The notes: generated by a model from the sequence alone, not told the origin. DNA of 64,000 bases from an uncultured Oscillospiraceae bacterium (GCA_944387115.1 CALXDR010000004.1:699-64698), one strand, 5' to 3'. Counted from the stretch's first letter, positions 2-50,945 are shown. A program made the numbers and translations.

Positions 2-1423
2 GAGATTTCCGAGCTGATGAGCAAGCTGCTCACCCGGGCAGGCATCCCCCACAATGTGCTCAACGCCAAGAACCACGAGCGGGAGGCGGAAATCATTGCC
101 CAGGCGGGCAAGCTGGGCGCAGTCACCGTGGCCACCAATATGGCCGGACGAGGCACCGACATCCTGCTGGGCGGCAACGCTGAGTACATGGCAAAGGCGG
201 AGCTGCGCAAGAAGGGTATGAGCGAGGTGCAGCTGGCGGAGTGCGACGGGCACGCCGATACCGACAATGAGGAGATTTTGGAGGCCCGCCGGGCGTTTGC
301 CGAGGCGGAGGCCCGCTACAAAGAGGCCATCCGGGAGGAGGCTGAGCAGGTGCGTCAGGCGGGTGGCCTGTACATCCTGGGCACCGAGCGCCATGAGTCC
401 CGCCGCATTGACAACCAGCTGCGTGGCCGTGCCGGCCGTCAGGGCGACCCCGGTGAGAGCCGCTTCTTCCTCTCGTTGGAGGATGACATCCTCCGTCTGT
501 TCGGCTCTGAGCGCATTCAGAGCATGATGGAGAGCCTGGGCGTGGACGAGGATACCCCCCTGGACCAGAAGATGCTCTCCAGCGCCATTGAGTCCGCCCA
601 AAAGCGGGTGGAGTCCCGCAACTTCCAGACCCGCAAGACGGTGCTGGAGTATGACGACGTGATGAATACCCAGCGTGAGGTCATCTATGAGCAGCGCCGC
701 AAGGTGCTCGACGGCGAGGATGTCCACGCCGCTGTGGAGAATATGCTCACCGGTGTGGTGAGCAATACCCTGGCCGGACACGCCGGGGAGCAGGGCGTGT
801 TCACCCGTGAGGGCTTCCGTGCCGCCGCTGCCACGCTGATGCCCCTGTATACCCAGGAGCAGATGGAGCAGTTCCAGGCCCAGGCCGAGCAGCTGCCTGT
901 GGCGCAGCTGACCCAGCAGATGCTGGAGCAGGCCCAGGCCAACTACGACCAGCGTGAGCACCAGATTGACGAACAGATGGCCCAGCTGGCCCAGGCCACC
1001 GGCAAGAGCCCCATGCGGGAGCTGGAGCGGGTGATTATGCTGCGGGTGGTGGATGAGTACTGGATGGACCACATCGACGCCATGCAGGAGCTGCGCCAGG
1101 GCATTGGTCTGCGGGCCTATGGTCAGTCCGACCCGGTGGTGGAGTACAAGCGTGAGGGCTTTGATATGTTCGAGCAGATGATCGCTGCCATCCAGGAGGA
1201 GACGGTGCGCCGTCTGTTCACCGTGCGGGTGCGCACCAACGAGGAAATCAAGCGGGAGCGGGTGGCCAAGGTCACCGGCGAGTCCGGGGGCAGTGAGACC
1301 CCTGTGAAGAAGGCCCCGGTGAAGCACGCTGTGAAAATCGGCCGCAACGACCCCTGTCCCTGCGGCAGCGGACTGAAGTGGAAGAAGTGTACTTGTAAGG
1401 AGTATCATAGTGGGGAAAATTAA
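2..1423 (+). CDS. secA: Preprotein translocase subunit SecA, C-terminal part (gene starts upstream of window)
   Basis: Motifs VTVATNMAGRGTDI, GTERHESRRIDNQLRGRAGRQGDPG and C-terminal SEC-C GRNDPCPCGSG; frame open from base 2. Confidence 0.98.
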   Translation, partial: EISELMSKLLTRAGIPHNVLNAKNHEREAEIIAQAGKLGAVTVATNMAGRGTDILLGGNAEYMAKAELRKKGMSEVQLAECDGHADTDNEEILEARRAFAEAEARYKEAIREEAEQVRQAGGLYILGTERHESRRIDNQLRGRAGRQGDPGESRFFLSLEDDILRLFGSERIQSMMESLGVDEDTPLDQKMLSSAIESAQKRVESRNFQTRKTVLEYDDVMNTQREVIYEQRRKVLDGEDVHAAVENMLTGVVSNTLAGHAGEQGVFTREGFRAAAATLMPLYTQEQMEQFQAQAEQLPVAQLTQQMLEQAQANYDQREHQIDEQMAQLAQATGKSPMRELERVIMLRVVDEYWMDHIDAMQELRQGIGLRAYGQSDPVVEYKREGFDMFEQMIAAIQEETVRRLFTVRVRTNEEIKRERVAKVTGESGGSETPVKKAPVKHAVKIGRNDPCPCGSGLKWKKCTCKEYHSGEN

Positions 1424-2107
1424 GCGTCCGAGCCCCCGGAGCAGCTTGACTGGACCGCAGCGAGGAATAAATTTCAGGGCGGGCTATGCCCGGCCAAATT
1501 TGTTCCGAGACGGAGGGAAGTCAAGCGTTGCGGAGGGGAGCGAGGCGTGATAATGAAGAAGTGAACAGCCCCGGTCGCAGCCTGGTTGGACCGCAGTGAG
1601 GAATAAAACCCAGGGGGGCGGAGCCACCCGGTTTTGTTCCGAATCGGAGCGAAGCCAGCCGTTGCGAACGCTCTCACAAAAGTCCAAGGACTTTTGTGAG
1701 GGGGATGCAGGGGGAATAGGGTTCGATTCCTGCGGAATTGTCGCCCTATTTCCCCCGAGCAGAGTGTTTTCTTCAGGCGCATGTCCCCGGAAAACACGGG
1801 CCTTGGATTTTATTTCTCCGCCTGCGGGCGGAGAAACTCGGTGAGACACGAAGCGTCCGAGCCGTCGTGAGCAGGCTGGATGGAGCGGAGTGAGGAATAA
1901 AACCCAGGGGGGGCGGAGCCACCCGGTTTTGTTCCGAATCGGAGGGAAGCCAGCCGTTGCGAACGCTCTCACAAAAGTCCAAGGACTTTTGTGAGGGGGA
2001 TGCAGGGGGAATAGGGTTCGATTCCTGCGGAATTGTCGCCCTATTTCCCCTGAGCAGAGTGTTTTCTCCAGGCGCATATCCCCGGAAAACACCAGATTGG
2101 ATTTTCT
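1422..2107 (+). repeat. Mosaic palindromic repeat array 1 (3 scaffold units + 2 T modules)
   Basis: Units start (G/T)AAGCGTCCGAGCC; 1596-1797 and 1890-2092 are near-identical ~200 bp copies; modules recur in five other arrays. Confidence 0.93.
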
Positions 2108-2198
2108 TCGGGGGCATAGCCCCACACGCTGGGCACCACCGGAATACTTTTGTTTATGCAACCGTTTAAGCCATGGATTTTATGGCGGAAAGGGCAAT

Positions 2199-3020
2199 AT
2201 GAACATCATTGAGAAACAACATCAGGGCGTCACCTTCCTGGCGGCAGACGAGCTTTCTGCCGCCGGCGGGGTGGCCCACGGCTTTTCCACCCGTCTGGGC
2301 GGGGTTTCCCAGGGGATGTGGAGCTCCCTCAACCTGGGGGTGAGCCGGGGGGATGACCCCGACCATGTGCGGGAGAACTACCGGCGGTTTTTATCCGCCG
2401 TTGGCGCTGCCGGGGGGCGGCTGGCGATGGCCAATCAGGTGCATGGGGGCGAGGTGCGCACAGTGACCTCCGCCGACTGGAAGCAGGACCCTTACGGCAA
2501 GGTGTGTTTTGAGGCCGACGGCCTGATGACCGACATTCCCGGAGTGGCGCTGTGCGTGTTTACCGCCGACTGCATTCCCGTGCTTTTCTACGACCCGGTG
2601 CGCCGGGTGGTGGCCGCCGTCCACGCCGGGTGGCGGGGCACCGCCGCAGGCATCGCCGCCCGGGCGGTGGAGCGGATGGGCCAGGTGTACGGCAGCCGGC
2701 CTGAGGATATTTTGGCTGCCATCGGCCCGGGCATCGGCCCGTGCTGCTTCGACACCCATGAGGATGTGCCCAACGCCATGATGGCCTCCCTGTCCACCGC
2801 CGCCCTGGCGTATATCCAGAGCCTGGAGAACGGCAAATATTCCGTGGATTTAAAGGGCATCAATGCCCGGCAGCTGGAGCAGGCGGGGGTGCTTGGGGAG
2901 CACATCGCCGTGTGCCAGGCGTGTACTGCCTGCGACACGGAGACCTTCTGGAGCCACCGGCGGATGGGCATCAACCGGGGCTCTATGGCGTCGGTGATTG
3001 CACTGCAATGCACAGACTGA
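2199..3020 (+). CDS. pgeF: Peptidoglycan editing factor PgeF (YfiH/YlmD laccase-like domain)
   Basis: Motifs FSTRLGGVS, NQVHG, TADCIPVL, HAGWRG, IGPGIGPCCF; start placed at ATG 2199. Confidence 0.93.
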   Translation: MNIIEKQHQGVTFLAADELSAAGGVAHGFSTRLGGVSQGMWSSLNLGVSRGDDPDHVRENYRRFLSAVGAAGGRLAMANQVHGGEVRTVTSADWKQDPYGKVCFEADGLMTDIPGVALCVFTADCIPVLFYDPVRRVVAAVHAGWRGTAAGIAARAVERMGQVYGSRPEDILAAIGPGIGPCCFDTHEDVPNAMMASLSTAALAYIQSLENGKYSVDLKGINARQLEQAGVLGEHIAVCQACTACDTETFWSHRRMGINRGSMASVIALQCTD

Positions 3021-4537
3021 CCGCTTTGGCCCTGGCCCTGTGCCTGGTATTGACGGGGTGCGCAGGGCAGGCACAGCCCAGTGCCGAGCCTACATCCACT
3101 CCGGCGCCCACCCCCACGGCCACCCCTGCGGCGGCCAGCCAGCCCTTTGCCCTAAGCTATGACCCGGGGGCCACCCTCCATCCCATCACCGGCACCAGCC
3201 AGGTGAATCTGGACCTGGCCCCCCTGGTGTATCAGGGACTGTACGCCCTGGACAATGCCTTTGTCCCCCAGCCGGTGCTGGCGCAGAGTGCGCAGGTCAG
3301 CGAGGACGGGCGGGTGTGGACCATCACCCTGGCCCAGGGCGTGACCTTTTCCGACGGCACACCCCTCACCGCCGGGCACGTGGTAAGCTCCCTCAACACT
3401 GCCGCCGCCAGCACCTTGTATGCCAGCCGTCTGGCAGGGGTGAGCGGGGTGCAGGCGGGGGACGGACAGGTGATGATTACCCTGTCTGTGCCCAATGGGA
3501 ATTTACCCGCCCTGCTGGACATCCCAATCGTGCTGGAGCAGGGGAGCGGTGCGCCGCTGGGCACGGGGCGCTATCGCTTTGCGGACACTGGGGAGGGGCT
3601 GGAATTGCAGGCCAATGGGGCCTATGCAGACCGCCTGCCCTACCAGAGCATCCCCCTGCACCCCACCGCCACGGCGGATGAGCGCATTGCCGCCTTTGAC
3701 AGCGGCGAGGTGACGGCGGTGACCACCGACTTTTCCTCTCCCTATGCCCTGGGCTATTCCAGCAGCTATGAGACTTACGACTACCCCACCACCAATCTGC
3801 TCTATGTGGGGTTTCGCACCACCGGGGGCGTGTGTCAGAGTGCCCAGGTGCGTCAGGCCTTCTCCCAGGTGTTTGACCGCAATTCTGTGGTGCGCTCCCT
3901 GCTGTCGGGACACGGGGAGGCCGCCTGCCTGCCCATCTTCCCCCGCCACGCCGACTACCCTGCTGCGGCGGCGGAGAAGCTGGATTACGACGTACAGGCG
4001 GCGGCGCAGCTGCTGGAGGGCAGCGGCTTTTCCAAGGGAGAGGACGGGCTGTTTTACCAGGGGGGCAGCCCGGTGTCTGTCAAGCTCATTGTCAACAGCG
4101 ACAACACGGCCCGGCAGAACATTGCAGACTTTCTGGCCCGCAGCCTCACCTCGCTGGGCGTGCAGGTGGAGGTGCGCAAGCTGGCCTGGGAGGACTACAA
4201 CAATGCACTGCTGTCCGGGCAGTATGACTTATATCTGGGTGAGGTGCGCATGACGGCGGACTTCGACCCCACCGCCCTGCTGGCGGGAAATCTCAACTAC
4301 GGCGGCTATGCCAGCCAGCAGCTTCCCACGCTGCTGGGGCAGTGGAAGGCCGCCCAGGGCGAGGCACGCAACCAGGCGGCCCAGGCCCTGTATGACCTGT
4401 TTGCCCAGGAAGTGCCCATCGCACCGCTGTGCTTTCACAATGAATCCATGCTGGTGCGCTGGGGGATGGTGACAAACCTGATACCTACCCGGGGAGATCC
4501 CTATTGGAACATGGAGGCGTGGCAGCACACCTCTTGA
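3008..4537 (+). CDS. ABC transporter substrate-binding lipoprotein, family 5 (peptide/nickel type)
   Basis: Signal peptide with lipobox LTGC, Pro/Thr linker, LVYQGLY, FSDGTPLTA, VRQAFSQVFDR; overlaps pgeF end. Confidence 0.85.
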   Translation: MHRLTALALALCLVLTGCAGQAQPSAEPTSTPAPTPTATPAAASQPFALSYDPGATLHPITGTSQVNLDLAPLVYQGLYALDNAFVPQPVLAQSAQVSEDGRVWTITLAQGVTFSDGTPLTAGHVVSSLNTAAASTLYASRLAGVSGVQAGDGQVMITLSVPNGNLPALLDIPIVLEQGSGAPLGTGRYRFADTGEGLELQANGAYADRLPYQSIPLHPTATADERIAAFDSGEVTAVTTDFSSPYALGYSSSYETYDYPTTNLLYVGFRTTGGVCQSAQVRQAFSQVFDRNSVVRSLLSGHGEAACLPIFPRHADYPAAAAEKLDYDVQAAAQLLEGSGFSKGEDGLFYQGGSPVSVKLIVNSDNTARQNIADFLARSLTSLGVQVEVRKLAWEDYNNALLSGQYDLYLGEVRMTADFDPTALLAGNLNYGGYASQQLPTLLGQWKAAQGEARNQAAQALYDLFAQEVPIAPLCFHNESMLVRWGMVTNLIPTRGDPYWNMEAWQHTS

Positions 4538-4604
4538 TGTGATAAATAGACTTGGCAAGGCTCTGACGTATGGGGGGCCGACGGCAAAAGGGAGAGATCT
4601 TGGA

Positions 4605-7600
4605 ATGAGTCATGTATTTCGGTGTTATGTGGAAAAGCGGCCCGGCTTTGATGTGGAGGCGGGCAGCACCCTGCGGGAGCTGCGCAATCAGCTGGGCATT
4701 GCAGGGCTGAGGGGTGTGCGGCTGTTCAACCGCTATGACGTGGAGGGGGTGGATGCGGCGGTTTATCAGGCCGCCCAGTCCACCGTATTCTCAGAGCCTC
4801 AGTGCGACCTGCTCTACGAGGAGCATCTGCCCGCCCTGGGGGAGGAGGTGCGCCTGTTGGCGGTGGAGGCTCTGCCCGGTCAGTATGACCAGCGGGCAGA
4901 CTCCTGCGAGCAGTGCATCATGCTCCTGGCGGGGGTGGAGCGCCCCAGGGTGGTCAACGCCCGGGTGTATGCGCTGGAGGGGGTGCTCACCGAGCAGGAG
5001 CTGGAGCGGGTGAAGGGCTATCTCATCAACCCGGTGGAGTGCCGGGAGGCCTCCATGGACAAGCCGGACACCCTGGAGCGCACCTACCAGACGCCAAGTC
5101 AGGTGCCCGTGCTCACCGGCTTTACCACCCTGGACCGGCAGGGACTGGAGGGACTGCTGGAGGAATACGGCCTTGCCATGGATTTGGCGGACTTGACCTT
5201 CCTCCAGGGGTATTTTCGGGATGAGGAGGGGCGTGACCCCACCATCACCGAGGTGCGGGTGGTGGATACTTACTGGTCTGACCACTGCCGCCACACCACC
5301 TTTTCCACCCACATTGACCGGGTGGAAATCCTTGACCCCCAGGTGGCCGCCGCCTACCAGAGGTACCTGGACGCCCGGGTGGAGGTGTATGGAGAGGCAC
5401 GGGCGGCCCAGCGGCCTCAGACGCTGATGGACATTGCCACCATTGCCGCCAAGACCCTCAAGCAGCGGGGCCTGCTGGCCAATCTGGATGAGAGTGAGGA
5501 AATCAACGCCTGCTCCATCCATGTCACCGCCACGGTGGACGGGGAGGCCCAGGACTGGCTGCTCATGTTCAAAAATGAGACCCACAACCACCCCACCGAG
5601 ATTGAGCCTTTTGGCGGGGCGGCCACCTGCATTGGCGGCTGCATCCGCGACCCCCTGTCCGGTCGGGCCTATGTGTACCAGGCCATGCGTCTGACCGGCG
5701 GCGGCGACCCCACCGTGCCCATGAGCCAGACCCTGCCGGGCAAGCTGCCCCAGCGCAAGCTGGCCCAGACTGCGGCGGCGGGCTATTCCTCCTACGGCAA
5801 CCAGATTGGACTTGCAACCGGGCTGGTGCACGAGGTATACCACCCCGGCTACATCGCCAAGCACCTGGAGGTGGGGGCTGTGGTGGGGGCCGCCCCCGCC
5901 CACCATGTGGTGCGGGAGCGCCCTGCGCCCGGAGATGTGGTCATCCTGCTGGGCGGCCGCACCGGCCGGGACGGCATTGGTGGGGCCACCGGCTCCTCCA
6001 AGAGCCACAACCAAAGCTCGCTGTCCACCATGGCAAGCGAGGTGCAGAAGGGCAACGCCCCCGAGGAGCGCAAGCTCCAGCGGCTGTTCCGTGACCCCGC
6101 TGTCACCACCCTCATCAAGCGGTGCAACGACTTCGGCGCCGGCGGGGTATGCGTGGCCATTGGCGAGCTGGCTGACGGGCTGTCCATTGACCTGGATGCT
6201 GTGCGCAAGAAGTACGACGGGCTGGATGGCACGGAGCTGGCCATCTCCGAGTCTCAGGAGCGCATGGCGGTGGTGGTGGCCCCTGAGCACGAGGCCGCCT
6301 TCCTGGCCGCTGCCCAGCGGGAGAACTTGGAGGCCTATCGGGTGGCGTTGGTCACCCAGCAGGCCCGGATGGTGCTGACCTGGAAGGGACAGACCATTGC
6401 AGACCTCTCCCGCAGCTTCCTCAACACCAACGGCGCAGACAAGCACACCACTGTGACGGTGCCCCGGCGCACCGGCGCACGCCCGGCCCCCTATACCAGC
6501 CTGCGGGAGGTGGCCTCCTGCCTGGCCTGCGCCTCGAGAAAGGGTCTGACCGAGCGGTTTGACGGCTCCATTGGCGCCGCCTCGGTGCTCATGCCCTTTG
6601 GGGGCATCACCCAGCGCACCCCCACCCAGGTCATGGCCGCCACCCTCCCTGTGGAGCCGGGCAAGACCACGGAGGCCTGCTCGGTGATGAGCTGGGGCTT
6701 TGACCCCCACTGGATGTCCGCCGACCCCTATGCCGGGGCGTCTGCGTCGGTGGTGCTCTCCATGGCCAAGCTGGTGGCGGCAGGGTGCGACCCCAGGGCC
6801 GCCTACCTCACCTTCCAGGAGTATTTTGAAAAGCTGCGGGAGGACCCCAGCCGCTGGGGCAAGCCCTTTGCCGCACTGCTGGGCACTGTGGAGGCGCAGC
6901 TGGGGCTGGAGGTGGCCGCCATTGGCGGAAAGGACTCTATGTCCGGGTCCTTCCTCGACTTGGATGTGCCCCCCACCCTCATTTCCTTTGCCGTGGCCCC
7001 TGCGCAGGCCAGCCAGGTGCTCTCCCCTGAGTTCAAGGCCGCAGGCCACCCGGTGGTGCTCTTCCCCGCCCCGGATGGGCAGGATTACGCCGCCCTGCGC
7101 ACCCTGTGGCAGCAGGTACACCAGCTGGCCCAGGCGGGCAGGCTGCGGGCCGCCTGGGCGGTGGAGGGCGGCGGCGTGGCGGAGGCTGTGATGAAGATGG
7201 CCTTCGGCAACGTCATTGGCTTTGCCGCCCAGCCCGGCGTAGAGGCGCCCTGGTACGGGCATATGCCCGGGGCCATTGTGGCGGAGCTGGCGGATGACCA
7301 GATTCCCCAGGGGGCAGTGCTCCTGGGCCATACCACCCAGGAGGGTGTGATTGCCCTGGAAGGGGACAGCGCCGGTGTGGAGGAGCTGTGCGCCCTGTGG
7401 GAAGGGGTGCTGGAGGGAGTATATCCCACCGATCCGGGTACGCAGGATGAGCCGGTGCCGGTGATTTCCTGGCAGGGACGCTCTCCCGCTGTGTTCACCC
7501 AGCAGGTGGGCCAGCCCCGGGCCATTATCCCCGTGTTCCCCGGCACCAACTGCGAGTATGACACCGCCGCCGCCTGCCGCAAGGCGGGCATCCAGCCTGA

Positions 7601-12434: not shown

Positions 12435-12668
12435 CCTGCATCCTATTAAAAAAGGCCTTGGGGGTTTGGGATGGCTCGGACGCTTCTAAGATGTCACGCC
12501 TCGCCTGCTCACGACGCTCGGCTTCCCTCCGATTCGGGACACAAACAGGCCGGCCGTGCCGTCCTTGGTTTGTATCCCTCACTTCGGTCCATCCGAGCTG
12601 TTCGCAACGGCTCGGACGCTTCTAAGATGTCACGCCTCGCCTGCTCGCGACGGCTCGGGCGCTTCTAA
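12435..12668 (-). repeat. Mosaic palindromic repeat array 2
   Basis: Reverse strand reads GAAGCGCCCGAGCC...GAAGCGTCCGAGCCGTTGCGAAC...GAAGCGTCCGAGCC followed by a degenerate T-module start. Confidence 0.88.
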
Positions 12669-18254: not shown

Positions 18255-18412
18255 ATTCGGGGGGGCTGCGCACTTCTTTGTTGTCACGCCTCGCCTGTTC
18301 GCGACGGCTGGCTTCGCTCCGATTCGGAACAAAACCGGGTGGCTACGCCCCCCTGGGTTTTATTCCTCGCTTCGCTCCATCCAGCCTGCTCACGACGGCT
18401 CGGACGCTTCTA
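18255..18412 (-). repeat. Mosaic palindromic repeat array 3 (single unit)
   Basis: Begins in the TAG stop of the upstream permease (TAGAAGCGTCCGAGCC); close match to unit at 1850-1966. Confidence 0.9.
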
Positions 18413-32593: not shown

Positions 32594-32775
32594 CCTTCGG
32601 TCTAGCCCATCCGAGGGGCGGCGGGGTTCGGACGCTTCTAAGATGTCACGCCTCACAACCCGCCGCTGTCCCTCGGCTTCCCTCCGACTCAGGGCAAATC
32701 CGGTCGGGCTATGCCCGCCCTGGGTTTTGCCCTTCGCTCCGGTCCATCCGAGCTACTCCGGGGGTTCGGCACTTC
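32594..32775 (-). repeat. Mosaic palindromic repeat array 4
   Basis: One full unit close to 50675-50815 plus a truncated unit sharing CCGAACCCCGCCGCCCCTCGGATGG with 41279. Confidence 0.88.
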
Positions 32776-39305: not shown

Positions 39306-39518
39306 GCCGTCTCACCCTTTGTTGTCAGTGCCCCGCCCCCTTCCGGGGGCGAGGCTGACAGATACCTTCAAATGTTCGAGTTACGCACTGAGTGCAGGCC
39401 GGAGGGGAGCTACCCTCCGGCCTGCATTCATTTTGCGGGGCAATGGGGAGATGGGGCGGGGAGGGTGTATCCCCAGCGCCGGGTGGGGCATAGAGTGGGG
39501 CAGAGAGGAGGGGGAGGT

Positions 39519-40997
39519 ATGCGCCTATCCCAACTGCTGGCCCCGCTGGGGCTGGCGTGTACACAGGACACCGAGGTGACAGGGCTTGCCTGTGACTCCC
39601 GCCACGTCAAGCCGGGGATGCTCTTTGCAGCCCTGCCCGGCCAGCACCGCCGGGGGGAGGATTACATTGCCCAGGCGGTGGAGCGGGGGGCCTGCGCAGT
39701 GCTGCGGGGGGAGGAAGGCGGAGCAGCGGGCGTAGGGGTGCCCTGCATCACCGTGAAAAATCCCCGGCGCACCCTGGCGCTGCTGGCGGCGCAGTGGTAC
39801 CAGCACCCGGCCCAGTCCCTCACCCTGCTGGCGGTGACAGGCACCAAGGGCAAGACCACCACGGCCCATATGCTGCGGGACATCCTGCTGGAGGCGGGAT
39901 ACCGGACGGGGATGGTGGGCACGCTGGGCACCTTTTTGGGGCGGGAGCAGCTGGCTGTGCCGGACAACACCACCCCGGAGCCCATTACCCTCCAGGCACA
40001 GCTGCGCCAGCTGGCGGATGCGGGGTGTACCCATGTGGTGCTGGAGGTATCCTCCCAGGCCATGAAGCAGGAGCGGTTGGCGGGGGTCACGGTGGACGGG
40101 GCGCTGTTTCTCAACCTGTCCCCAGACCACATTGGGCCGGGAGAGCATGGCAGCTGGGAGGAGTACCAGGCGTGCAAGGCCCGGCTGTTTGCCCAGTGCC
40201 GCCTGGCGGTGGGCAATGGGGACGACCCCAGCTGGAGCGCCATGGCAAAGCGGATTCCCCCTGGCGTGGCGCAAAGCACCTTTGGCTTTGGCCCTGGGGT
40301 GAGCCTGCGGGGCAGTGGGGTGGAGCCTGCGGGGGATGGGCTGTCCACCCGGTTTTCTGTATCAGACTGCGACGCCCCCTATCAGGTGGCGCTGCCCGGG
40401 CAGTTCAACGCCGCCAATGCCCTGGCGGCAGTGGCGCTGTGCCGGGCTATGGGGGTGGAGGATGGAGCCATTCGAGGAGGGCTGGCGGGGGTAAAGGTGC
40501 CTGGACGCACCCAGCGGGTGGAGGGGGTGGAGCACCCCATGGTGCTCATCGACTATGCCCACAATGGGGAGAGCGTCCGTGCCCTCCTCTCTGCGCTGTC
40601 CGCATACCCCCACCGGCGGCTGATTGTGGTGTTTGGAGCGGGGGGCGACCGTCCCCCCATGCGGCGGCGGGATATGGCGCTGGCGGTGGCGGAATGGGCG
40701 GATTTGGCGGTGGTCACCGAGGACAATCCCCGGTGGGAGCGGGTGGAGGACATCTGCGCCCACATCACTGCCGCCCTGGGCAGCCGTATCCCCTGGCGGG
40801 TGGAGTACAACCGGGAGCGGGCCATCCGGTTGGCGCTGGAGCTGGCAGGGCCGGAGGATCTTGTGGCGCTGCTGGGCAAGGGGCATGAGCGATACATCGA
40901 GTGCCAGGGGGTGCGCCGTCCCCTGTGGGAGGAGGAAGTGGTTAGGGAAGCGTCCGAGCCGTTGCGAACAGCCCGGATGGAGCGAAGTGAGGAATAA
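39519..40997 (+). CDS. murE: MurE ligase paralogue 1 (DNPR motif, meso-DAP type)
   Basis: VTGTKGKTTT, TTPEP, EVSSQA, IDYAHN, GAGGDR, TEDNPR; last ~16 codons come from repeat array 5. Confidence 0.9.
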   Translation: MRLSQLLAPLGLACTQDTEVTGLACDSRHVKPGMLFAALPGQHRRGEDYIAQAVERGACAVLRGEEGGAAGVGVPCITVKNPRRTLALLAAQWYQHPAQSLTLLAVTGTKGKTTTAHMLRDILLEAGYRTGMVGTLGTFLGREQLAVPDNTTPEPITLQAQLRQLADAGCTHVVLEVSSQAMKQERLAGVTVDGALFLNLSPDHIGPGEHGSWEEYQACKARLFAQCRLAVGNGDDPSWSAMAKRIPPGVAQSTFGFGPGVSLRGSGVEPAGDGLSTRFSVSDCDAPYQVALPGQFNAANALAAVALCRAMGVEDGAIRGGLAGVKVPGRTQRVEGVEHPMVLIDYAHNGESVRALLSALSAYPHRRLIVVFGAGGDRPPMRRRDMALAVAEWADLAVVTEDNPRWERVEDICAHITAALGSRIPWRVEYNRERAIRLALELAGPEDLVALLGKGHERYIECQGVRRPLWEEEVVREASEPLRTARMERSEE

Positions 40998-41480
40998 AAC
41001 CCAGGGGGGCGAAGCCACCCGGTTTTGTTCCGAATCGGAGTGAAGCCGGGCGTCGTGAGCAGGCGAGGCGTGACATCATCGAAGCGCTGAGCGCTTCAAA
41101 AAAGTCCAAGGACTTTTTTGAGGGGATGCAGGGGGAATAGGGTTCGATTCCTTCGGAATTGTCACCCCATTCCCCCTGAGAAGAGTGTTTTCCGAGGCGC
41201 ATGTCCCCGGAAAACACAGGATTGGACTTTATTTCGCCGCCTGCGGGCGGCGAAACTCTGTGAGACAGAAGCGAAGCGTCCGAACCCCGCCGCCCCTCGG
41301 ATGGACTGGAGCGAAGGGCAAAGCCCAGGGAGGGCACAGCCCGGCCGGGTTTGCCCTGAGTCGGAGTGAAGCCGGGCGTCGTGAGCAGGCGAGGCGTGAC
41401 ATCATCGAAGCGCTGAGCGCTTCAAAAAAGTCCAAGGACTTTTTTGAGGGGATGCAGGGGGAATAGGGTTCGATTCCTGT
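40947..41480 (+). repeat. Mosaic palindromic repeat array 5 (2 units + 1 full and 1 partial T module)
   Basis: Starts inside murE 3' end; 41040-41150 duplicated at 41364-41478. Confidence 0.92.
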
Positions 41481-41567: not shown

Positions 41568-43127
41568 TCAGGCTCTGGCCTGATCTTCCGTATCTATCAG
41601 ATGCGCAATCTGGCGGGCCTCATACTCTTCCAGGAAGGTGCGCACATAGTCCACATCGGAGGGGGTTTCGATGTATTCCAGCCCCCGCTTTTGCCGGGTC
41701 TCTGCGCCCTTTCCGGTGATGAGGAGGACGGAGGGGGTTTTGCAGCCCAGCACCGCCTGGCGGATGGCCTCCCCTCGGTTGGGCTGAATGTCGTAGGGAC
41801 AGCCGGCGGCCTCCACATGGGCGGCAATTTCCCGGCAGATGTCCATGGTGTTCTCCTCCCCGGAGTCCTCCTCGGTGAGGATGACAAACTGGGAGTGCTT
41901 GCCCGATACCTCGCCCAAATCCCGGCGGCGGTCAAAGGCCTTTTTGCCGGGACAGCCAAAGACGGTGACAATGCGCCGCTTGGGGTACTCCTCCGCCACC
42001 GAGCGGAAGAGCGCCTCAAAGCTCATGCGGTTGTGGGCGTAGTCCACCACGGCCACCACCCGGCGGTCGGTGCTCTGGAATACCTCCATCCGGCCGGGCA
42101 CCTGGGCCTGCTCCAGACCCTGCTGCACCGCCCACTGGGGGATGTTCAGGGCCAGACAGATGGTGATGGCGGCCAGGGCATTTTCCACGTTGAACATACC
42201 CGGCATGGACAGCTGGTAGTGGCCGGAGAGATGTCCTGCCTCCACCTGGAGGGTGATGTGATTCCCCACCTTGCGCACCCGCCGGGCGAACACATCCGCC
42301 CACCGGTCACGGCGGGAGAAGGTGAGGGCTTTGGCGGCGCTGCGGTGGGCGGCGGAGAGGATCCGGGGGGCGTGGGCGGCGTCCAGGTTGACACAGGCCG
42401 TCTGTGTCTGGGCAAACAGCTTGAGCTTGGACTGGAAGTAGTCCTCGAAGTCGGTGTGCTCCACAGGAGAGATGTGATCCTCGCCGATGTTGAGGAAACA
42501 GCTGGCGGCAAAGTGGGTGCCTAGAGTGCGGTGATATTTCAGAGCCTGGGAGGATACCTCCATCACCATATAGCCCAGACCGGACTGGATGGCATTGGAA
42601 AAGTGGCGCTGCAGCTCGATGGGTTCCGGGGTGGTGAGGTGGGATTCAAACTGTTCCACGCCGTCGTAGGTGTCAATGGAGGAGATGACGCCGCAGGCGC
42701 TGTTGCGCTGGGCGAGGTAGGCGTCCAGAATATACTTCAGATAGTAGGTAGTGGTGGACTTGCCCTTGGTGCCGGTGATGCCGATGACGGGCAGGCGCTG
42801 AGAGGGGTCGTGGTAAAACTGCACCGCCAGCAGGGGGAGGGCACGGCGGATGTCTGTGACCTGAATGCAGGGCAAATCCACATCGGGGTAGGGGGTTTCG
42901 CTGACATAGGCAAGGGCGCCGCTTTGGGCGGCCTGCACCAGATACTCCGGCTTGAAGTGGGCGCCCTTGCACACAAATAGGGTGTTGGATATGACGTGCT
43001 GAGAGTTGTCGGAAACCGACCGTACCTCTTGAGACATGGGGAAGCTGCGCAGCGGGGGGACGGCAAGCAGGCCTTCCCGTTGGAGCAGGGCGCAGTACAC
43101 GCCCAGGGTGTCATAGTGTTGTTGCAT
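41568..43127 (-). CDS. murE: MurE ligase paralogue 2 (no DNPR motif; probable Lys/Orn type)
   Basis: ITGTKGKSTT, TTPEP, EVSSQA, VDYAHN, TEEDSGEE replacing TEDNPR. Confidence 0.85.
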   Translation of the reverse strand: MQQHYDTLGVYCALLQREGLLAVPPLRSFPMSQEVRSVSDNSQHVISNTLFVCKGAHFKPEYLVQAAQSGALAYVSETPYPDVDLPCIQVTDIRRALPLLAVQFYHDPSQRLPVIGITGTKGKSTTTYYLKYILDAYLAQRNSACGVISSIDTYDGVEQFESHLTTPEPIELQRHFSNAIQSGLGYMVMEVSSQALKYHRTLGTHFAASCFLNIGEDHISPVEHTDFEDYFQSKLKLFAQTQTACVNLDAAHAPRILSAAHRSAAKALTFSRRDRWADVFARRVRKVGNHITLQVEAGHLSGHYQLSMPGMFNVENALAAITICLALNIPQWAVQQGLEQAQVPGRMEVFQSTDRRVVAVVDYAHNRMSFEALFRSVAEEYPKRRIVTVFGCPGKKAFDRRRDLGEVSGKHSQFVILTEEDSGEENTMDICREIAAHVEAAGCPYDIQPNRGEAIRQAVLGCKTPSVLLITGKGAETRQKRGLEYIETPSDVDYVRTFLEEYEARQIAHLIDTEDQARA

Positions 43128-45067: not shown

Positions 45068-45169
45068 GAAACAATCAATCTCCTTACACGCTGTCCCGGA
45101 GGACAGTCGGACTGCGAAAAAGTGTTCTGTCCCGGCGGGACAGAGGGGGGTTAGGCATGGCAGAGCCGC

Positions 45170-47407
45170 TCACCCTGTGGCACGGCGCACCCCCAGCACG
45201 CCGGGAACCTGGGAGAGCTTGTTGATGATGCTGGTAAGCTCCTTCTGGTCTTTCACCACCAGGTCCAGGATGACCACGGCATAGCCGTCGGGCTGGGCCC
45301 GGGCGGACATATTGCTGAGCTTGGCTTTTTGGGCGGACAGCGCCATGGCCACATCCAGGGCCAGGCCATCCCGGTCCTTGGCGGACACCTCCAGGCTGGT
45401 GTGGTAGGAGGTCTGCTCGCCATCCACCCAGGACACCTCCACCCAGCGCCCTGCCTCTTCCGGTTTGCGGCGGGCGGGATCGGCGTTGGGGCAATCCTTG
45501 CGGTGGATGGACACGCCATAGCCCCGGGTGATAAAGCCCACCACCGGGTCGCCGGGGACGGGGGTGCAGCATTTAGAAAACTTCACCATGCAGTTGTCCA
45601 GCCCCTCCACAATGATTCCGCTCTCCGAGCGGCGGGGGCGGGGGGCGGAGGTCTGCTTGGCGGTGGCGGGGAACACCGTCTCCCCGGCGGACAGGGAGGC
45701 GTGCATGGCCTGGCGGTCGGCGTGCTGCCGCTCCAGACGGCCCAGGCGGGTCAGCTCCTCCTTCATCCGGCCCACCGCCTTAGCTGCGGACATACCGCCG
45801 TAGCCGATGGCGGCATACAGCTCCTCCAGGGCGCCGAAGCGCACCCGCTTGAGCAGGGTGTCCAGCAGCTCAGGGGAGGCGGTGATGGCGGACATGGTCA
45901 GTCCGGCGTGCTTCAGCTCCGCCTCGAAGGCGGCCCGTCCGGTGACGATATTCTCCTCCCGGCGCTCTTTCTTGAACCACTGGCGGATTTTGTTGCGGGC
46001 TTCGTTGGACTTGCAGATGTGCATCCAGTCCCGGCTGGGGCCTCGGGCAGACTTGGAGGTGAGAATCTCCACAATGTCCCCGTTTTTCAAGGGGGTATCA
46101 AAGGTGACAATGCGCCCGTTTACCCTGGCGCCCGTCATGGAGTTGCCCACGGCGGAGTGGATGGAATAGGCAAAGTCAATGGGGGTGGCTCCGGCGGGCA
46201 GGCTCTTCACATCCCCGTTGGGGGTAAAGACAAATACCTCGTCGGCGAACATATCCACCTTGAGGGTGCGCACAAACTCATCCGGGTCGGTGTCCTGCTG
46301 GCTCTCCAGCAGCTTGCGCACCCATTCAAACTCCTGCTCGGTGCCCAGGTTGCTGTTTGCCATGCCCTGCTTGTACTTCCAGTGGGCGGCCACGCCGTAT
46401 TCGGCGGTCTGGTGCATCTTCCAGGTGCGGATTTGCACCTCGAAGGGAATGCCCTCCCGCCCCACCACGGTGGTGTGGAGGGACTGGTACCCATTGGGCT
46501 TGGGGGTGCCAATGTAGTCTTTGAACCGGCCCAGCACGGGGTTGAACATATCGTGGATGGAGCCGAGGACATTGTAGCAGCTGGAGATGTCCTCCACAAT
46601 CACCCGCAGGGCATAGATGTCGAAAATCTCCCGCAGGGTCTTGCTCTGGGCGTACATCTTGCGGTAGATAGAGTAGATGTGCTTGAGCCGCCCGTACACC
46701 GTGCACTGGATGCCCTCTTTCTTGAGGCGCTGCTCAATTTGATCGCGCATCCGGGAGAGAAACTCGGAGTTTTGCTGGGTGAGGGCCTCCAGCTCCTGCT
46801 CCACCTCCTGGTAGCCCACCGGGTCCAGGTAGCGAAGGGACAGATCCTCTAGCTCCCACTTCAGCTTCTGCATACCCAGGCGGTGGGCGATGGGGGCGTA
46901 AATCTCCATGGTCTCCAGGGACTTTTCCTTCTGCTTGCGGGGGGTCTGGAACTGGAGGGTGCGCATATTGTGCAGCCGGTCGCACAGCTTGATGAGAATC
47001 ACCCGCACATCCTTGGCCATGGCCATGAACATCTTGCGCAGGTTTTCCATCTGCTCGTCCTCTTTGGAGGTGTACTGCATCCGGGTGAGCTTGGTCACCC
47101 CGTCCACCAGATTGGCTACCGTGTCCCCAAAAAGATGGGCAATATCCTCGTGGGTGGAGTCGGTGTCCTCAATGCAGTCGTGGAGCAGAGCGGCAATGAC
47201 CGAGTCGGTGTCCAAATCCAGCTCTGCCACAAGGACGGCCACGGCGATGGGGTGGGTGATGTATGGCTCGCCGCTTTTGCGCATCTGACTGCCGTGGTGT
47301 GCACGGGCATAGTCAAAGGCCTGGCGGAGGCGCTCCACGTTGGCCTCAGAATTGTTTTCAAGCACAATGTGCTCGAGGGACTGGTATTGGGTAAGGACAT
47401 GATCCAT
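45170..47407 (-). CDS. relA: Bifunctional (p)ppGpp synthetase/hydrolase (long RSH)
   Basis: RKSGEPYITHP, LHDCIED, DRLHNMRTL, KPNGYQSLHT, AEYGVAAHWKYK, TGS and ACT domains. Confidence 0.97.
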   Translation of the reverse strand: MDHVLTQYQSLEHIVLENNSEANVERLRQAFDYARAHHGSQMRKSGEPYITHPIAVAVLVAELDLDTDSVIAALLHDCIEDTDSTHEDIAHLFGDTVANLVDGVTKLTRMQYTSKEDEQMENLRKMFMAMAKDVRVILIKLCDRLHNMRTLQFQTPRKQKEKSLETMEIYAPIAHRLGMQKLKWELEDLSLRYLDPVGYQEVEQELEALTQQNSEFLSRMRDQIEQRLKKEGIQCTVYGRLKHIYSIYRKMYAQSKTLREIFDIYALRVIVEDISSCYNVLGSIHDMFNPVLGRFKDYIGTPKPNGYQSLHTTVVGREGIPFEVQIRTWKMHQTAEYGVAAHWKYKQGMANSNLGTEQEFEWVRKLLESQQDTDPDEFVRTLKVDMFADEVFVFTPNGDVKSLPAGATPIDFAYSIHSAVGNSMTGARVNGRIVTFDTPLKNGDIVEILTSKSARGPSRDWMHICKSNEARNKIRQWFKKERREENIVTGRAAFEAELKHAGLTMSAITASPELLDTLLKRVRFGALEELYAAIGYGGMSAAKAVGRMKEELTRLGRLERQHADRQAMHASLSAGETVFPATAKQTSAPRPRRSESGIIVEGLDNCMVKFSKCCTPVPGDPVVGFITRGYGVSIHRKDCPNADPARRKPEEAGRWVEVSWVDGEQTSYHTSLEVSAKDRDGLALDVAMALSAQKAKLSNMSARAQPDGYAVVILDLVVKDQKELTSIINKLSQVPGVLGVRRATG

Positions 47408-47536
47408 TACGATACCTCCTTGCTGGATTTGAGGAAGGGCCTTGCGGGCTGGGGCAAGGGCGCTGCAAGGCAAGGGGATGGGGGGCTTTCGGCAAAGGCC
47501 AGCCCGCCCGCCGTCAAAAGCGTGGGGGGTGCAGGC

Positions 47537-49612
47537 TCACTCCAGCATGGCGCGCAGCTGGCGCATCATGGGAGCCTGCTCCAAATCCGCCTTTGCGGCG
47601 GTGCGGTTGAGGCAGATGGTGGCGCTGTGGCCGGAGAGGGTGAAGCGGATGAGGTTGAGCTGCGCCATCACATGCAGGCCCACCAGGGCCTTCCCATAGG
47701 CGGCGCCGCCGCTGTGAGCCAGGGCGTGGCGGGCCAGCTGCTCCAGAGGCACCGCAGTGTCCGGCTGGGTACAGGTGCGGGCCAGATAGCGCCACAGCTG
47801 GGCGCAGTCGGGGCGCTGGGGGAGGAGCAGTCCCGCTTCCCACCGGGACAGGGCCTGTCCCGCCTGTAGGCGGTGGAACAGCTCCAGCTCCAGCTGGGGG
47901 CGGGGCGGGGCGGGACGCAAATCGCACAGCTGGAGCTGCGGGGTGCGGCTGCCCCGAAATTCGTTGATGTGGAGGGTGAAGGCCAAGTCCAGCCGGTCCC
48001 CCGGGGACACCTGACAGCTGGCGGTGTTGGCGGAGAAAAAGATGGCGTCCAGCACCTCCCCGTCCCGGCGCACCCGGAGCTTCAGGTGCCGCCCGCCGCC
48101 CACATCTCCGCAGCTGACCACATACATGGAGCGGGCGAGAAACACGGGGCGCTCGTTGCCGTGGCCTGTGGGCTCCAGCAGGTCCAGCTGATCGACGGCC
48201 TGGCAGGTGAGCTGACGGCAGCAGTCAATTTCCGCATCGATGTCCAGGGTGGATACCATGGGGGTGTGGCGGGTGTGCTCTGCAACCAAATCCCCCATGG
48301 CCTGGCGCAGGGCGGGGATTTGGTCGGCCTGAATGGTGAGCCCCGCCGCCTTGGCATGTCCCCCGAAGCCCTCCAGCAGGGGGGCGCACCGCTCCAGGGC
48401 GGCGAAGAGGTTGAATTCCCCATAGGAGCGGCAGGAGCCCTTTCCCTTGCCCTTCTCCCGGTCCAGGCTGATCATCAGGGTGGGGCGGCCGTACTGCTCT
48501 GCCAGCCGGGAGGCCACAATGCCAATGACCCCCTGGTGCCAATTCTCCCCCGCCAGCACCAGGGCCGGGCCGAGCAGCTGGGGATCTTGCTCCAGCATGG
48601 CCTGGCAGGAGTCTATGATTTCCTGCTCCATGGCCTGCCGCTCCCGGTTGAGCTCCCCCAGGGCGGAGGCCAGTTCTACCCCCCGCTCCTCCTCCCGGGT
48701 GAGGAGCAGCTCCAGGGCCAAGGAGGCGTGCTGAATGCGCCCGGAGGCGTTGAGCCGGGGGGCAATGCTGAATCCAATGGTGGCAGAGGTGGGCTGGCGT
48801 CCGTCCCGGCCCAGCACCTCCTGGAGCAGTGCGTGCAGACCGGGGCGCTGGGTGCAGGCGAGCAAATCCAGTCCGGTGCGCACCAGGGAGCGGTTTTCGT
48901 CCGCCAGCACCATCACATCTGCCACGGTGCCCACGGCGGCAAGCTCGCCATAGCGCTCCATCACCTCCTGCCGGGCCTCCGGCGGAGCCAGCGCCAGGGC
49001 CAGCTTGAGGGCCACCCCAACCCCTGCCAGCTCCTTGAAGGGGTAGGGGCAGTCCTCCCGCCGGGGGTCTACCACCGCCACCGCCTGAGGAAGGGTGTCC
49101 TTGCACTGGTGGTGGTCGGTGATGACCACATCCACCCCCAGACTGCGGGCGTATTCCACCTCGCCCACGGCGGTGATGCCGCAGTCCACGGTGATAATCA
49201 GCCCCACGCCCTGCCGGTGCAGGGCGGAGATGGCGGTGGGGTTGAGGCCATAGCCCTCCTCCATCCGGTCGGGGATGTAACTGACCACATCGCCCCCCAG
49301 CTCCCGCAGCCGCTCGGTGAGCAGGCAGGTGGAGGTGATGCCGTCTACATCATAGTCGCCGTATACCGCCATCTGCTCGCCGCTTGCCAGCGCCTGGGAG
49401 ATGCGGGCCACTGCCCGGTCCATATCCTTCAGGAGAAAGGGGTCACGGGCGTGAAAGGGGGTATCGGACAAAAAGGCCCTGGCCTTTTCCGGACTATCCA
49501 CCCCCCGGGCATACAGGACGCAGGCGCACAGCGGGGACAGCCCAAGCCCCTCCAGCGCCTGGAGCGCCCCTGTCGGTGCCGGAGGGCGCAGATTCCACTG
49601 TTTGTATTTCAT
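47537..49612 (-). CDS. recJ: Single-stranded DNA exonuclease RecJ
   Basis: DYDVDG, ITVDCG, TDHH, GTVADV, PRLNASGR, GSCRS, GGHAKAAG. Confidence 0.96.
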   Translation of the reverse strand: MKYKQWNLRPPAPTGALQALEGLGLSPLCACVLYARGVDSPEKARAFLSDTPFHARDPFLLKDMDRAVARISQALASGEQMAVYGDYDVDGITSTCLLTERLRELGGDVVSYIPDRMEEGYGLNPTAISALHRQGVGLIITVDCGITAVGEVEYARSLGVDVVITDHHQCKDTLPQAVAVVDPRREDCPYPFKELAGVGVALKLALALAPPEARQEVMERYGELAAVGTVADVMVLADENRSLVRTGLDLLACTQRPGLHALLQEVLGRDGRQPTSATIGFSIAPRLNASGRIQHASLALELLLTREEERGVELASALGELNRERQAMEQEIIDSCQAMLEQDPQLLGPALVLAGENWHQGVIGIVASRLAEQYGRPTLMISLDREKGKGKGSCRSYGEFNLFAALERCAPLLEGFGGHAKAAGLTIQADQIPALRQAMGDLVAEHTRHTPMVSTLDIDAEIDCCRQLTCQAVDQLDLLEPTGHGNERPVFLARSMYVVSCGDVGGGRHLKLRVRRDGEVLDAIFFSANTASCQVSPGDRLDLAFTLHINEFRGSRTPQLQLCDLRPAPPRPQLELELFHRLQAGQALSRWEAGLLLPQRPDCAQLWRYLARTCTQPDTAVPLEQLARHALAHSGGAAYGKALVGLHVMAQLNLIRFTLSGHSATICLNRTAAKADLEQAPMMRQLRAMLE

Positions 49613-49721
49613 GCTGTCAGTCCTCAAAGATAAAATTATCTTCTATTATAACAAACTCCGGTGATACTTGCAACTGGGGAAACCATCGGGAAAGGGGACA
49701 CTTTTTTCTCCTGTTGGAAGG

Positions 49722-49761
49722 CGAACGCTTGTTTGACAGCGCAGGTGGGATATGGTACACT
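49722..49761 (+). promoter_or_regulatory. lexA promoter with overlapping SOS (Cheo) box
   Basis: CGAACGCTTGTTTG at 49722-49735 overlaps TTGACA(49733)-17bp-TACACT(49756). Confidence 0.85.
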
Positions 49762-49797
49762 ACCCCCATAAGCGGTATTGGAAAGGAGCCAGCCCCT

Positions 49798-50400
49798 GTG
49801 AGCAGATTATCCCCCAAACAACAGCAAATCTATGACTATATCCTGGATTTTTCCCAGGAGCATGGCTATCCCCCCTCGGTGCGGGAAATCGCCCAGGCGG
49901 TACACCTGCGCTCCCCGTCCACAGTGCATTTCCACCTCAAGGGGCTGCGGGAGGCGGGGTTCATCAGCCAGGCGGAGGGGAAGACACGGGCCATCTCCAT
50001 CGCCGACGGCGCACACAACCGCCGGGACCAGGTGCCTGTGGTGGGGGCGGTGGCTGCCGGCGCCCCGATTCTGGCCCAGGAGTGTATTGACGAGTACCTC
50101 ACCTTTGACACCAACGGCCTGACGGGGGAGCACTTTGCCCTGCGGGTGCAGGGGGAGTCCATGCTGGATGCGGGGATTCTCCCGGGAGATCTGGTGGTGG
50201 TGCATCAGCAGCAGGACGCCCGCAACGGAGAAATTGTGGTGGCCCTGTTTGAAGATGAGGCCACGGTCAAGACCTACCGCCGGGGCAGTGATGGACACCT
50301 GTGGCTGCTGCCGGAAAACCGCAGCGGGGAGTACCAGCCCATTGACGGCACAGGCTGCACCATTTTGGGGAAGGTTGTGGCAGTGGTGCGGAGGTATTAA
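49798..50400 (+). CDS. lexA: SOS repressor LexA
   Basis: GYPPSVREI, VAAGAPI (Ala-Gly cleavage site), GESM, ATVK; GTG start after AAGGAG. Confidence 0.96.
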   Translation: MSRLSPKQQQIYDYILDFSQEHGYPPSVREIAQAVHLRSPSTVHFHLKGLREAGFISQAEGKTRAISIADGAHNRRDQVPVVGAVAAGAPILAQECIDEYLTFDTNGLTGEHFALRVQGESMLDAGILPGDLVVVHQQQDARNGEIVVALFEDEATVKTYRRGSDGHLWLLPENRSGEYQPIDGTGCTILGKVVAVVRRY

Positions 50401-50403
50401 ATA

Positions 50404-50945
50404 GAAGCGCTGAGCCGTCGCGAACAGCCCGGATGGACCGGAGCGAGGGATAACCATGTAAGGCAGGCGTAGCCTGCCATGGTTGTCCCGAGACGGAGGG
50501 AAGCCGGGCGTCGTGAGCAGGCGAGGCGTGACAACACAGAAGCGCTAAGCCGTCGTGAGCAGGCTGGATGGACCGAAGTGAGGAATAAAACCCAGGGGGG
50601 CGCAGCCCCCCGGTTTTGTCCCGAATCGGAGGGAAGCCAGCCGTTGCGAACAGGCGAAGCGTGACAGCGAAGAAGCGTCCGAGCCCCCGGAGCAGCTCGG
50701 ATGGACTGGAGCGAAGGGCAAAACCCAGGGCGGGCATAGCCCGGCCGGATTTGCCCTGAGTCGGAGGGAAGCCGAGCGTCAGCGGAGGGGAGAGAGGCGT
50801 GACAATGAAGAAGCGTCCGAGCCTTCTCAAAAAAGTCCAAGGACTTTTTTGAGGGGATGCAGGGGAAATAGGGTTCGATTCCTGTTGGAATTGTCACCCC
50901 ATTTCCCCTGAGTAGAGTGTTTCTCCAGGCGTATGTCCACGGGAA
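50404..50945 (+). repeat. Mosaic palindromic repeat array 6 (3 different units in tandem + T module)
   Basis: Starts 3 bp after lexA stop; three ~135-140 bp units with different central hairpins. Confidence 0.93.

Follow-up and report, generated by a model that had tools for sequence, protein, structure and literature searches.

Introduction

What is the hairpin-forming sequence that recurs behind one housekeeping gene after another in an uncultured Oscillospiraceae bacterium, and is its structure maintained as RNA or as DNA? The question is raised by a stretch of 64,000 nt (GCA_944387115.1, CALXDR010000004.1:699-64698; hereafter the window), in which six arrays of one modular repeat are located at 1422-2107 (+), 12435-12668 (-), 18255-18412 (-), 32594-32775 (-), 40947-41480 (+), and 50404-50945 (+). 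The original prediction had described 11 full units built on a shared scaffold, whose stems change in sequence while remaining paired, and had left open whether they represent a structured non-coding RNA or a mobile element folded as single-stranded DNA. The window arrays constitute a genuine, previously undescribed family of rod-shaped hairpin repeats of ~130 bases, which is of the REP/ERIC/BOX/MIRU kind and a Firmicute counterpart of the REP/ERIC/BOX-type intergenic repeats. The family most likely acts as RNA.

Results

Architecture of the repeat unit

Direct reading of the regions, together with a repeat finder, reproduced the six arrays at the same coordinates and on the same strands. A covariance model (CM), built from an alignment of the 11 full units of the window (hereafter A units) and applied to the window and to the retrieved loci, recovered exactly these 11 units in the window, with scores of 99-150 bits and E-values from 3e-24 to 2e-37. 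In the 11-unit alignment, the four outer-stem forms described before (GGCTGG/CCAGCC, GCCCGG/CCGGGC, GCTCGG/CCGAGC, and GCTTGA/TCAAGC) are all present, with perfect pairing in eight of the 11 units, and the three forms of the middle stem and four forms of the inner stem also match the earlier description. A units are 123-134 nt in length, typically ~128 nt, and fold on the sense strand into a single 42-bp rod, for which folding of the array 3 unit gave -58.4 kcal/mol and a z-score of -4.4. In this fold, the head GAAGCGTCCGAGCC pairs with the tail GGCGAGGCGTGAC, and the quasi-palindromic GTCGYGARCAG segments flanking the core pair with each other. The rod contains three covarying stems, with invariant purine-rich loops between the helices (5'-AUGGA/5'-GAAG and GNAG/GA) as well as a GAA bulge, and carries a variable apex on a highly conserved base. 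The pairing of head and tail, which makes the whole unit one rod, had been overlooked, as had a second, different module in the arrays and the position of the window arrays, which adjoin stop codons and without exception run in the sense direction. Manual fits of the AUGGA/GAAG loop to the K-turn, the loop E/sarcin-ricin motif, and the 11-nt receptor gave no clean match.

Within every array, in the window and in both sets of retrieved loci described below, all units are arranged head to tail on one strand. They are joined by A-rich linkers of ~6 nt, with no gene cassettes between them, and many arrays close with a lone head, often incomplete and 13-36 nt in length, which is found at the 3' end only.

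The second component, here called the B module, comprises ~180 nt with four hairpins (-89 kcal/mol, z -6.9). Five copies are present in the window, all on the sense strand and each downstream of an A unit, and a B-module 20-mer occurs five times compared with 0.00 expected from shuffled sequences. The exact 20-mer had no match in species-representative genomes, and the only contigs found to contain B belong to the same species. A tRNA-like nature, considered because of the B motif GGGTTCGATTCC, was rejected, as the motif sits within a long hairpin and ARAGORN found no cloverleaf and no tRNA or tmRNA in the window. The perfect palindrome in the first hairpin of B, AAAAAAGTCC-AA-GGACTTTTTT (loop at window positions 50836-50837), has a TT loop in another strain (L169:~88; L numbers denote retrieved loci and contigs), and this switch between TT and AA is a signature of inversion of the palindrome centre, a DNA-level event.

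Covariation and taxonomic distribution

The first locus set was retrieved with a gapped pattern of the conserved loops and comprises 43 loci in species-representative genomes, and the second was obtained by scanning with a 20-mer of the tail and comprises 80 further loci, some genomes being common to both sets. The CM gave 70 matches in the first set and 79 in the second. Nearly all first-set loci belong to Oscillospiraceae (Flavonifractor, Lawsonibacter, Muriventricola, Enterenecus, and Galloscillospira), and the second set adds Pseudoflavonifractor, Intestinimonas, and Limivicinus, along with a few chance matches in other phyla that lack any unit. Cultured carriers include Pseudoflavonifractor phocaeensis An858, Flavonifractor sp. 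An100, Intestinimonas aquisgranensis CLA-AA-H199, Muriventricola aceti H5_61, and a Lawsonibacter sp. The head 14-mer alone yielded 118 matches in unrelated phyla, all due to chance and none containing a unit. No copies were detected on viral contigs, phage records, or plasmid records. The Rfam search called for in the original prediction returned no family in the window; at the gathering score, neither the window nor any of 10 carrier loci matched an Rfam 15 entry, and relaxing the threshold to E <=10 for array 1 produced noise only (e.g., MIR8001 and ar14). Literature searches by sequence, taxon, and keywords likewise found no description of the family, in keeping with its earlier characterization as unnamed.

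Among the 11 window units, RNAalifold identified compensatory double changes at 14 of 31 pairs. At the 26 core pairs, 91.8% of cells were paired in the first set (66 distinct sequences from ~30 other species) compared with 35-48% in slid controls, and 89.3% in the second set compared with at most 47%. Compensatory changes were present at 25 of the 26 core pairs in each set, and the observed pairing and covariation scores were not attained by any of 500 shuffles in either set. The 16 head-tail pairs were paired in 92.3% of cells, versus 19-44% in slid controls. These results strongly support the earlier proposal that selection acts on structure.

The arrays might instead encode small repeated peptides, or be artefacts of assembly or annotation. 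Long open reading frames (ORFs) do cross the arrays (e.g., 50267..50830, minus strand), the public annotation makes a gene of this one (L163:2187-2750 (-), 187 aa, corresponding to window 50267-50830 (-)), and in some units the ATG of GGATGGA and the TGA of GGCGTGAC frame a possible 31-aa ORF. However, the frames from this ATG to this TGA are evenly distributed (34:32:27), a result by which the peptide-coding reading was rejected. In addition, stop codons lie inside many units, the unit lengths of 123-134 nt show no 3-nt periodicity, the ORFs fail the codon model, no Pfam family matches the annotated ORF, and the same arrays recur in numerous independent assemblies and in many species. We therefore regard a coding or artefactual origin as extremely improbable, and the annotated 187-aa gene, which is wholly antisense to the repeat array, is almost certainly spurious.

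Strand asymmetry, orientation, and transcription

At the paired positions of 51 distinct full units from other species, 218 G·U pairs were counted versus 28 A·C pairs, and the excess persisted after removal of the positions with fixed G·U (104 versus 28). Much of the variation in the outer helix consists of C/U opposite G or A/G opposite U, changes that are neutral in the sense RNA and disruptive in its complement, which points to a sense-strand transcript. In addition, the sense fold was more stable than the antisense fold in 61 of 62 units, with a mean minimum free energy of -59.3 versus -49.3 kcal/mol.

Sense orientation was observed for 38 of 40 arrays between co-directional genes in the first set and for 36 of 38 such arrays in the second, replication set (p = 5e-9), giving 74 of 78 combined. 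In the window, the array strands (+,-,-,-,+,+) match those of the local genes and switch three times within 64 kb; hence one replication direction cannot account for the orientation, and a replication-strand explanation was rejected. These observations bear on the possibility that the units are selfish, non-autonomous DNA elements (REP/RAYT-like, IS200/IS605-derived, or MITE-like), whose hairpin would be kept for recognition as single-stranded DNA by a strand-specific transposase or recombinase, and whose sense bias and stop-codon position would merely mark tolerated insertion sites. An orientation that follows the gene strand and flips with it is unlike lagging-strand targeting, and selection against antisense copies would itself operate at the RNA level. 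Between the two options that the original prediction had left standing, the excess of G·U over A·C, the stability of the sense fold, and the orientation thus lean toward RNA.

Units occur within operons, namely between ABC permease and ATPase genes in the window and between genes read as rpsG and fusA and as rpsN and rpsH in other species, and arrays directly behind stop codons or inside operons must be transcribed, either in the 3' untranslated region (UTR) or in intercistronic mRNA. Among metatranscriptome contigs, a lexA contig extends into the first unit and an arsR contig begins within B, and the recJ/lexA promoter gap had a depth of 0 in RNA runs while being covered in DNA runs. A conserved non-coding stretch of ~165 nt was also observed between the genes read as rpsN (S14) and rpsH (S8) (L144:5750-5912; also L125, L148, L151, and L159). 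It ends in ..GATACCTTKCCGYCTGTACCGA, with an A unit directly behind it, has no Rfam match, and may be an undescribed ribosomal-protein leader.

Many apexes resemble bidirectional intrinsic terminators with an A-tract, a GC-rich stem-loop, and a U-tract, and the units could accordingly be primarily terminators or attenuators whose scaffold modulates read-through between cistrons. A terminator scan flagged the apex of the unit at 50539-50665 on both strands, at least five T within the seven bases right after the apical stem were found in 7 of 11 window units and in 33 of 86 distinct units overall, and a position just past the stop codon is usual for a terminator. However, a large apex class (GGGCGAGCG..GCAGACCAGCCC) lacks any U-tract, indicating that no more than a subset of units can function in termination. 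A transcript ending at the apex would also lack the 3' arm, yet this arm covaries with the 5' arm, which requires read-through transcripts. Furthermore, units lie in operons ahead of genes that presumably need expression (those read as fusA and rpsH, and the ABC ATPase gene). A primary role in termination or attenuation is therefore improbable.

Position relative to stop codons

Fifty-one of the 74 sense arrays begin no more than 10 nt past the upstream stop codon or overlap it, versus 10.6 expected under uniform placement in the free spacer, and the spacer to the next gene has a median of 81 nt. The 5' end of the unit is GAAGCG or a stop-codon variant thereof. The first bases of the head vary with the stop codon kept, as in TAAGCG at the window secA and TGAGCG or ATAGCG in other species. 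Variation of this type is also present between strains: the secA stop codon in the repeat head (window 1421-1423) is TAA in the window and TGA in four strains that encode an identical yfiH-like protein (L342, L343, L346, and L351), and the junction at the ABC locus differs by one base, reading TAA+GAAGTG or TA+GAAGCG. In some genes, the ORF continues to the TGA of GTCGTGA, ~20 nt inside the unit.

A fixed insertion target sequence was rejected, as the upstream flanks share no motif beyond the stop codon and a preference for A. Two recurrent flanks were also noted: a conserved ..TTTTAGCAGTTGAATATGGNAGC lies directly 5' of A units in L256, L272, L281, and L303, ~96-115 nt past a gene, and ..GCGCAAAAAA recurs in L261, L266, L313, and L320. 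Both may represent orthologous sites or preferred targets other than stop codons.

Evolution between species and strains

The closest SecA in representative genomes, that of Candidatus Enterenecus stercoripullorum, is only 78% identical to the SecA of the window, suggesting that the window's species, a chicken-gut member of the Oscillospiraceae, is absent from the representative genome set; sequencing runs that contain the window are mostly chicken gut or faeces metagenomes. In related genomes, secA and its yfiH-like neighbour are syntenic and separated by spacers of 13-190 nt without a unit. The secA loci of 80 related species (472 kb) gave two weak CM matches, none of them after secA. Array 1 is thus a lineage-specific insertion at a stop codon in an organism that has undergone expansion of the family, its repeat-to-flank depth ratio of 57-120 in DNA runs corresponding to roughly 60-120 copies. 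A hairpin-rich insert of another type was noted at the secA end of Pseudoflavonifractor intestinihominis (L186:3820-4060), where the last ~43 nt of the gene, including TAA, recur ~130 nt downstream and bracket a GC-rich insert; it looks like a different 3'-end insertion that duplicated a long target.

Several species share other occupied sites, located behind a gene read as rpsO, in front of rpsH, and in the gap that separates an ACT-domain gene from a UPF0210 gene. Comparison of such orthologous sites in 21 locus pairs gave an identity of 0.86-1.00 for the basal 45 nt at each unit end in 18 pairs (full range 0.72-1.00), versus 0.59-0.92 for the upstream coding DNA in 16 of 21 pairs (at least 200 nt aligned, not near-identical). 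The identity of the apex is 0.5-0.98 in all locus pairs but one. The conserved unit base points either to selection on its specific sequence or to copies exchanging sequence with one another.

In the species itself, arrays differ widely among contigs whose flanking genes encode identical proteins, demonstrating gain, loss, and swapping of units. At the ABC locus, strains carry from one to four units that differ in their apexes, or else a B-like module or a nested unit, which sits inside another unit at a head-like GAAGCCGAGC site. At lexA, strains differ by a 173-nt deletion between GTCGYGARCAG repeats and by extra copies of one unit, and at secA other strains lack the 295-nt A+B duplication of the window, one of them having a fusion of A units 1 and 2. 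Remodelling probably proceeds through recombination at the head and at the GTCGYGARCAG repeats, and the pattern of n units plus a closing head would follow from recombination between heads, either through unequal exchange or through unit-length pieces being excised and inserted again.

Several of these features are what a selfish DNA element would produce: an expansion in one lineage to 11 units in 64 kb, the near absence of units from the secA loci of 80 related species, the nesting of one unit within another, the variability of arrays between strains, and the conservation of head, tail, and loops far beyond that of adjacent genes. However, there is neither a fixed-length target-site duplication nor a GTAG-type 5' motif, the units are placed head to tail instead of inverted as in BIMEs, and copies on viral contigs, phages, and plasmids are absent. 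Nor did a scan of window genes detect any transposase; it took in the whole of 0-37 kb and, further on, the flanks of the arrays, with 43-49 kb and 54-64 kb outside it. Considering these points together with the orientation data, we judge a selfish DNA element to be unlikely, although it retains some weight.

Comparison with known repeats

ERICs (IRUs) are imperfect palindromes of ~127 nt in transcribed intergenic regions of Enterobacteriaceae and Vibrio. The present units resemble them in their near-equal length, in forming one long imperfect hairpin over the whole element (a ~128-nt, 42-bp rod), and in their location in operons, 3' UTRs, and transcribed intergenic DNA, where ERICs are thought to act on mRNA stability or processing. 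No sequence relation is apparent, the ERIC consensus not having been compared directly, and the hosts here are Oscillospiraceae, members of another phylum. ERICs occur as single copies and in both orientations, whereas the present units are ~95% sense, often tandem, abut stop codons, and carry a variable apex on a highly conserved base.

REPs of Escherichia coli and Pseudomonas are 20-40 nt long with a conserved 5' GTAG-type motif, alternate in orientation in BIMEs, and are tied to RAYT transposases. Like the present family, they are high-copy extragenic hairpins that are co-transcribed, clustered, and frequently near stop codons, and they protect mRNA 3' ends, as the present units probably do. 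Liang, Rudd and Deutscher (2015) reportedly found that a REP lying no more than 15 nt from a stop codon influences translation of the upstream gene. In contrast, the units here are 123-134 nt long, begin with GAAGCG or its stop-codon variants, and stand head to tail on one strand. As for a tie to RAYT, no transposase is present among the scanned window genes, and the first-set loci inspected contain no gene with inverted units on its two sides.

BOX of Streptococcus pneumoniae has the composition boxA-boxB(n)-boxC. It shares with the present arrays a modular Firmicute mosaic with a variable number of middle modules, a predicted stable RNA structure, and an intergenic location near genes, but differs in its modules and sequences and is not known to be tied to stop codons. 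To our knowledge, no rod with conserved purine loops has been reported for BOX, and the B module here is a separate structured piece of ~180 nt. The earlier description of the repeats as REP/BIME/BOX-like is thus apt as an analogy in the way of working, and not as a statement of membership.

MIRUs (mycobacterial interspersed repetitive units) measure 46-101 bp and contain small in-frame ORFs thought to couple translation. The present arrays are likewise direct, tandem, intercistronic, gene-oriented, and variable in number between strains, and overlap upstream stop codons, with 74 of 78 arrays in sense orientation and 51 of 74 within 10 nt of a stop. However, their units are long non-coding hairpins, with even frames (34:32:27) and lengths of 123-134 nt.

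In NIME/dRS3 arrays of Neisseria and in integron attC (VCR) arrays, as here, a short conserved sequence delimits the units and likewise forms the end of the array, and strains exchange array content in a cassette-like manner. The attC/VCR elements are strand-specific hairpins of ~60-140 nt conserved in structure. The present arrays differ in having no gene cassettes, the units being separated by 6-nt linkers, no GTTRRRY core, and no adjacent integrase at the six housekeeping loci of the window, and in occupying many transcription-oriented loci. dRS3 are inverted repeats, whereas the heads here are direct. As regards MITEs, head and tail are imperfectly complementary, the flanks have no fixed duplication, and the optional lone head of 13-36 nt stands at the 3' end only.

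Arrays of the window

The window arrays adjoin housekeeping loci, the scanned genes including secA, purL, pepF, mutL, dtd, dnaD/dnaI-like genes, proS, Mur ligases, lexA, and feoB. Array 1 (+) begins with A unit 1 (1421..1551; 125 bits), which opens with the TAA stop codon of secA (ORF end at 1423). A unit 2 (1558..1670; 99.5 bits) has its tail replaced by a B module according to the alignment. Copy 1 of B follows at 1671..1849 (~180 nt, four hairpins, -89.1 kcal/mol, z -6.9), as delineated by direct repeat families and the B alignment. A unit 3 (1850..1964; 125 bits) is part of the 295-nt A+B duplication, visible as direct repeats at 295-nt spacing, and B copy 2 (1965..2107; repeat finder and B alignment) lacks the last hairpin.

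Array 2 (-) lies between convergent genes for an FAD protein and PepF, assigned by Pfam. It comprises an 'empty' unit of 37 nt (12629..12665; 29.9 bits, E 7e-6), which consists of head, GTCGCGAGCAG, and tail without the central hairpin, a full A unit (12493..12622; 136.5 bits), and a terminal segment (12435..12486) with a lone head (12473-12486, 0 mismatches) and a degenerate remnant ..AAGGCCTTTTTTAATAGGATGCAGG.. that was likened to the start of B by eye. In array 3 (-), located inside an operon between ABC-2 permease and ABC ATPase genes (Pfam), the stop codon TAG of the permease gene (18410-18412) shares base 18410 with the start of the A unit (18283..18410; 148 bits). Its terminal lone head GAAGTGCGCAGCC (18264..18276) is kept in 8 of 10 strain contigs read at this locus. 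Array 4 (-) comprises an A unit (32645..32775; 118 bits) and the head and beginning of the body of a truncated next unit (32594..32638), and is positioned downstream of the terminator of a DAPG-hydrolase-like gene and upstream of a dnaD-like gene.

Two Mur-ligase paralogues, at 39372-40997 (+) and 41568-43127 (-), converge on array 5 (+). The former enters A unit 1 (40947..41074; 149.7 bits) by 51 nt and ends at the unit's own TGA (40995-40997), so that its final 17 codons and stop codon are supplied by the repeat. This unit is followed by a partial head with B copy 3 (41081..41267; repeat finder and B alignment), A unit 2 (41273..41400; 115.7 bits), a chimera combining the 5' outer-stem half of one unit type with the 3' half of another, and a partial head with truncated B copy 4 (41407..41480; B alignment). 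Array 6 (+) begins 4 nt past the stop codon of lexA (identified by Pfam) and contains A unit 1 (50404..50532; 132 bits), A unit 2 (50539..50665; 139.6 bits) with the terminator-like apex mentioned above, A unit 3 (50672..50803; 129 bits), and a lone head (50810-50823) with B copy 5, together spanning 50810..50945 (head match and B alignment).

Discussion

Taken together, the repeats are probably an RNA structure co-transcribed in 3' UTRs and between cistrons, which is remodelled at the DNA level by recombination at its conserved head. Several points weigh against this explanation. About 30-40% of arrays are away from stop codons, and the extreme conservation of head, tail, and loops across genera is the expected look of a transposase or recombinase recognition site. 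A G·T wobble is the best-tolerated mismatch in single-stranded DNA hairpins too, and a strand-specific DNA enzyme could yield the same asymmetry. The pair counts were taken from alignments fitted to the CM, and genes in loci other than the window were called by our own crude codon-model caller, which was checked against Pfam only in the window. The RNA evidence consists of assembled metatranscriptome contigs without strand information and is supportive, not decisive, and the depth of the repeat relative to its flank, 130-355x in RNA runs and 57-120x in DNA runs, mostly reflects copy number.

If the co-transcribed RNA structure is the selected object, the rod would act in cis, as REP, ERIC, and BOX elements do, as a stable obstacle for 3' exonucleases and/or as a site of double-strand processing by which the levels of adjacent cistrons are set relative to each other. 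The base of the rod would lie so near the stop codon that ribosomes could not terminate there without melting the head-tail helix, and the subset of units with an A-tract/GC-stem/U-tract apex may double as leaky terminators. The near-identity of head, tail, and loops across genera suggests a conserved trans-acting partner that reads the loops, and recombination at the head would explain the lone closing heads and the differences between strains. According to a more far-reaching proposal, the rods are the cis part of a dedicated Oscillospiraceae system, in which a conserved protein or ribonucleoprotein reads the invariant purine-rich RNA loops at stop codons and thereby controls termination, ribosome recycling, or operon polarity, while the head doubles as a recombination site at which unit-length pieces are excised and re-inserted in a Campbell-type manner, generating cassette-like, strain-variable arrays. 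We consider this system quite unlikely.

Oscillospiraceae are abundant gut commensals with an almost unexplored non-coding genome, and the family is present in the order of 100 copies in the window's organism, in housekeeping operons across many genera, and in what look like ribosomal-protein operons of other species. It breaks short-read assemblies, as most contigs at the examined loci end inside arrays, and gives rise to spurious ORF calls. The hypervariable arrays could serve as strain markers, comparable to MIRU-VNTR in mycobacteria. The combination of clear covariation, G·U asymmetry in favour of the sense strand, strict sense orientation, and stop-codon adjacency makes the family a good system for studying the effects of hairpins beside stop codons on translation termination and operon stoichiometry, and it permits a search for the factor that keeps stretches of 25-45 nt near-identical across genera.

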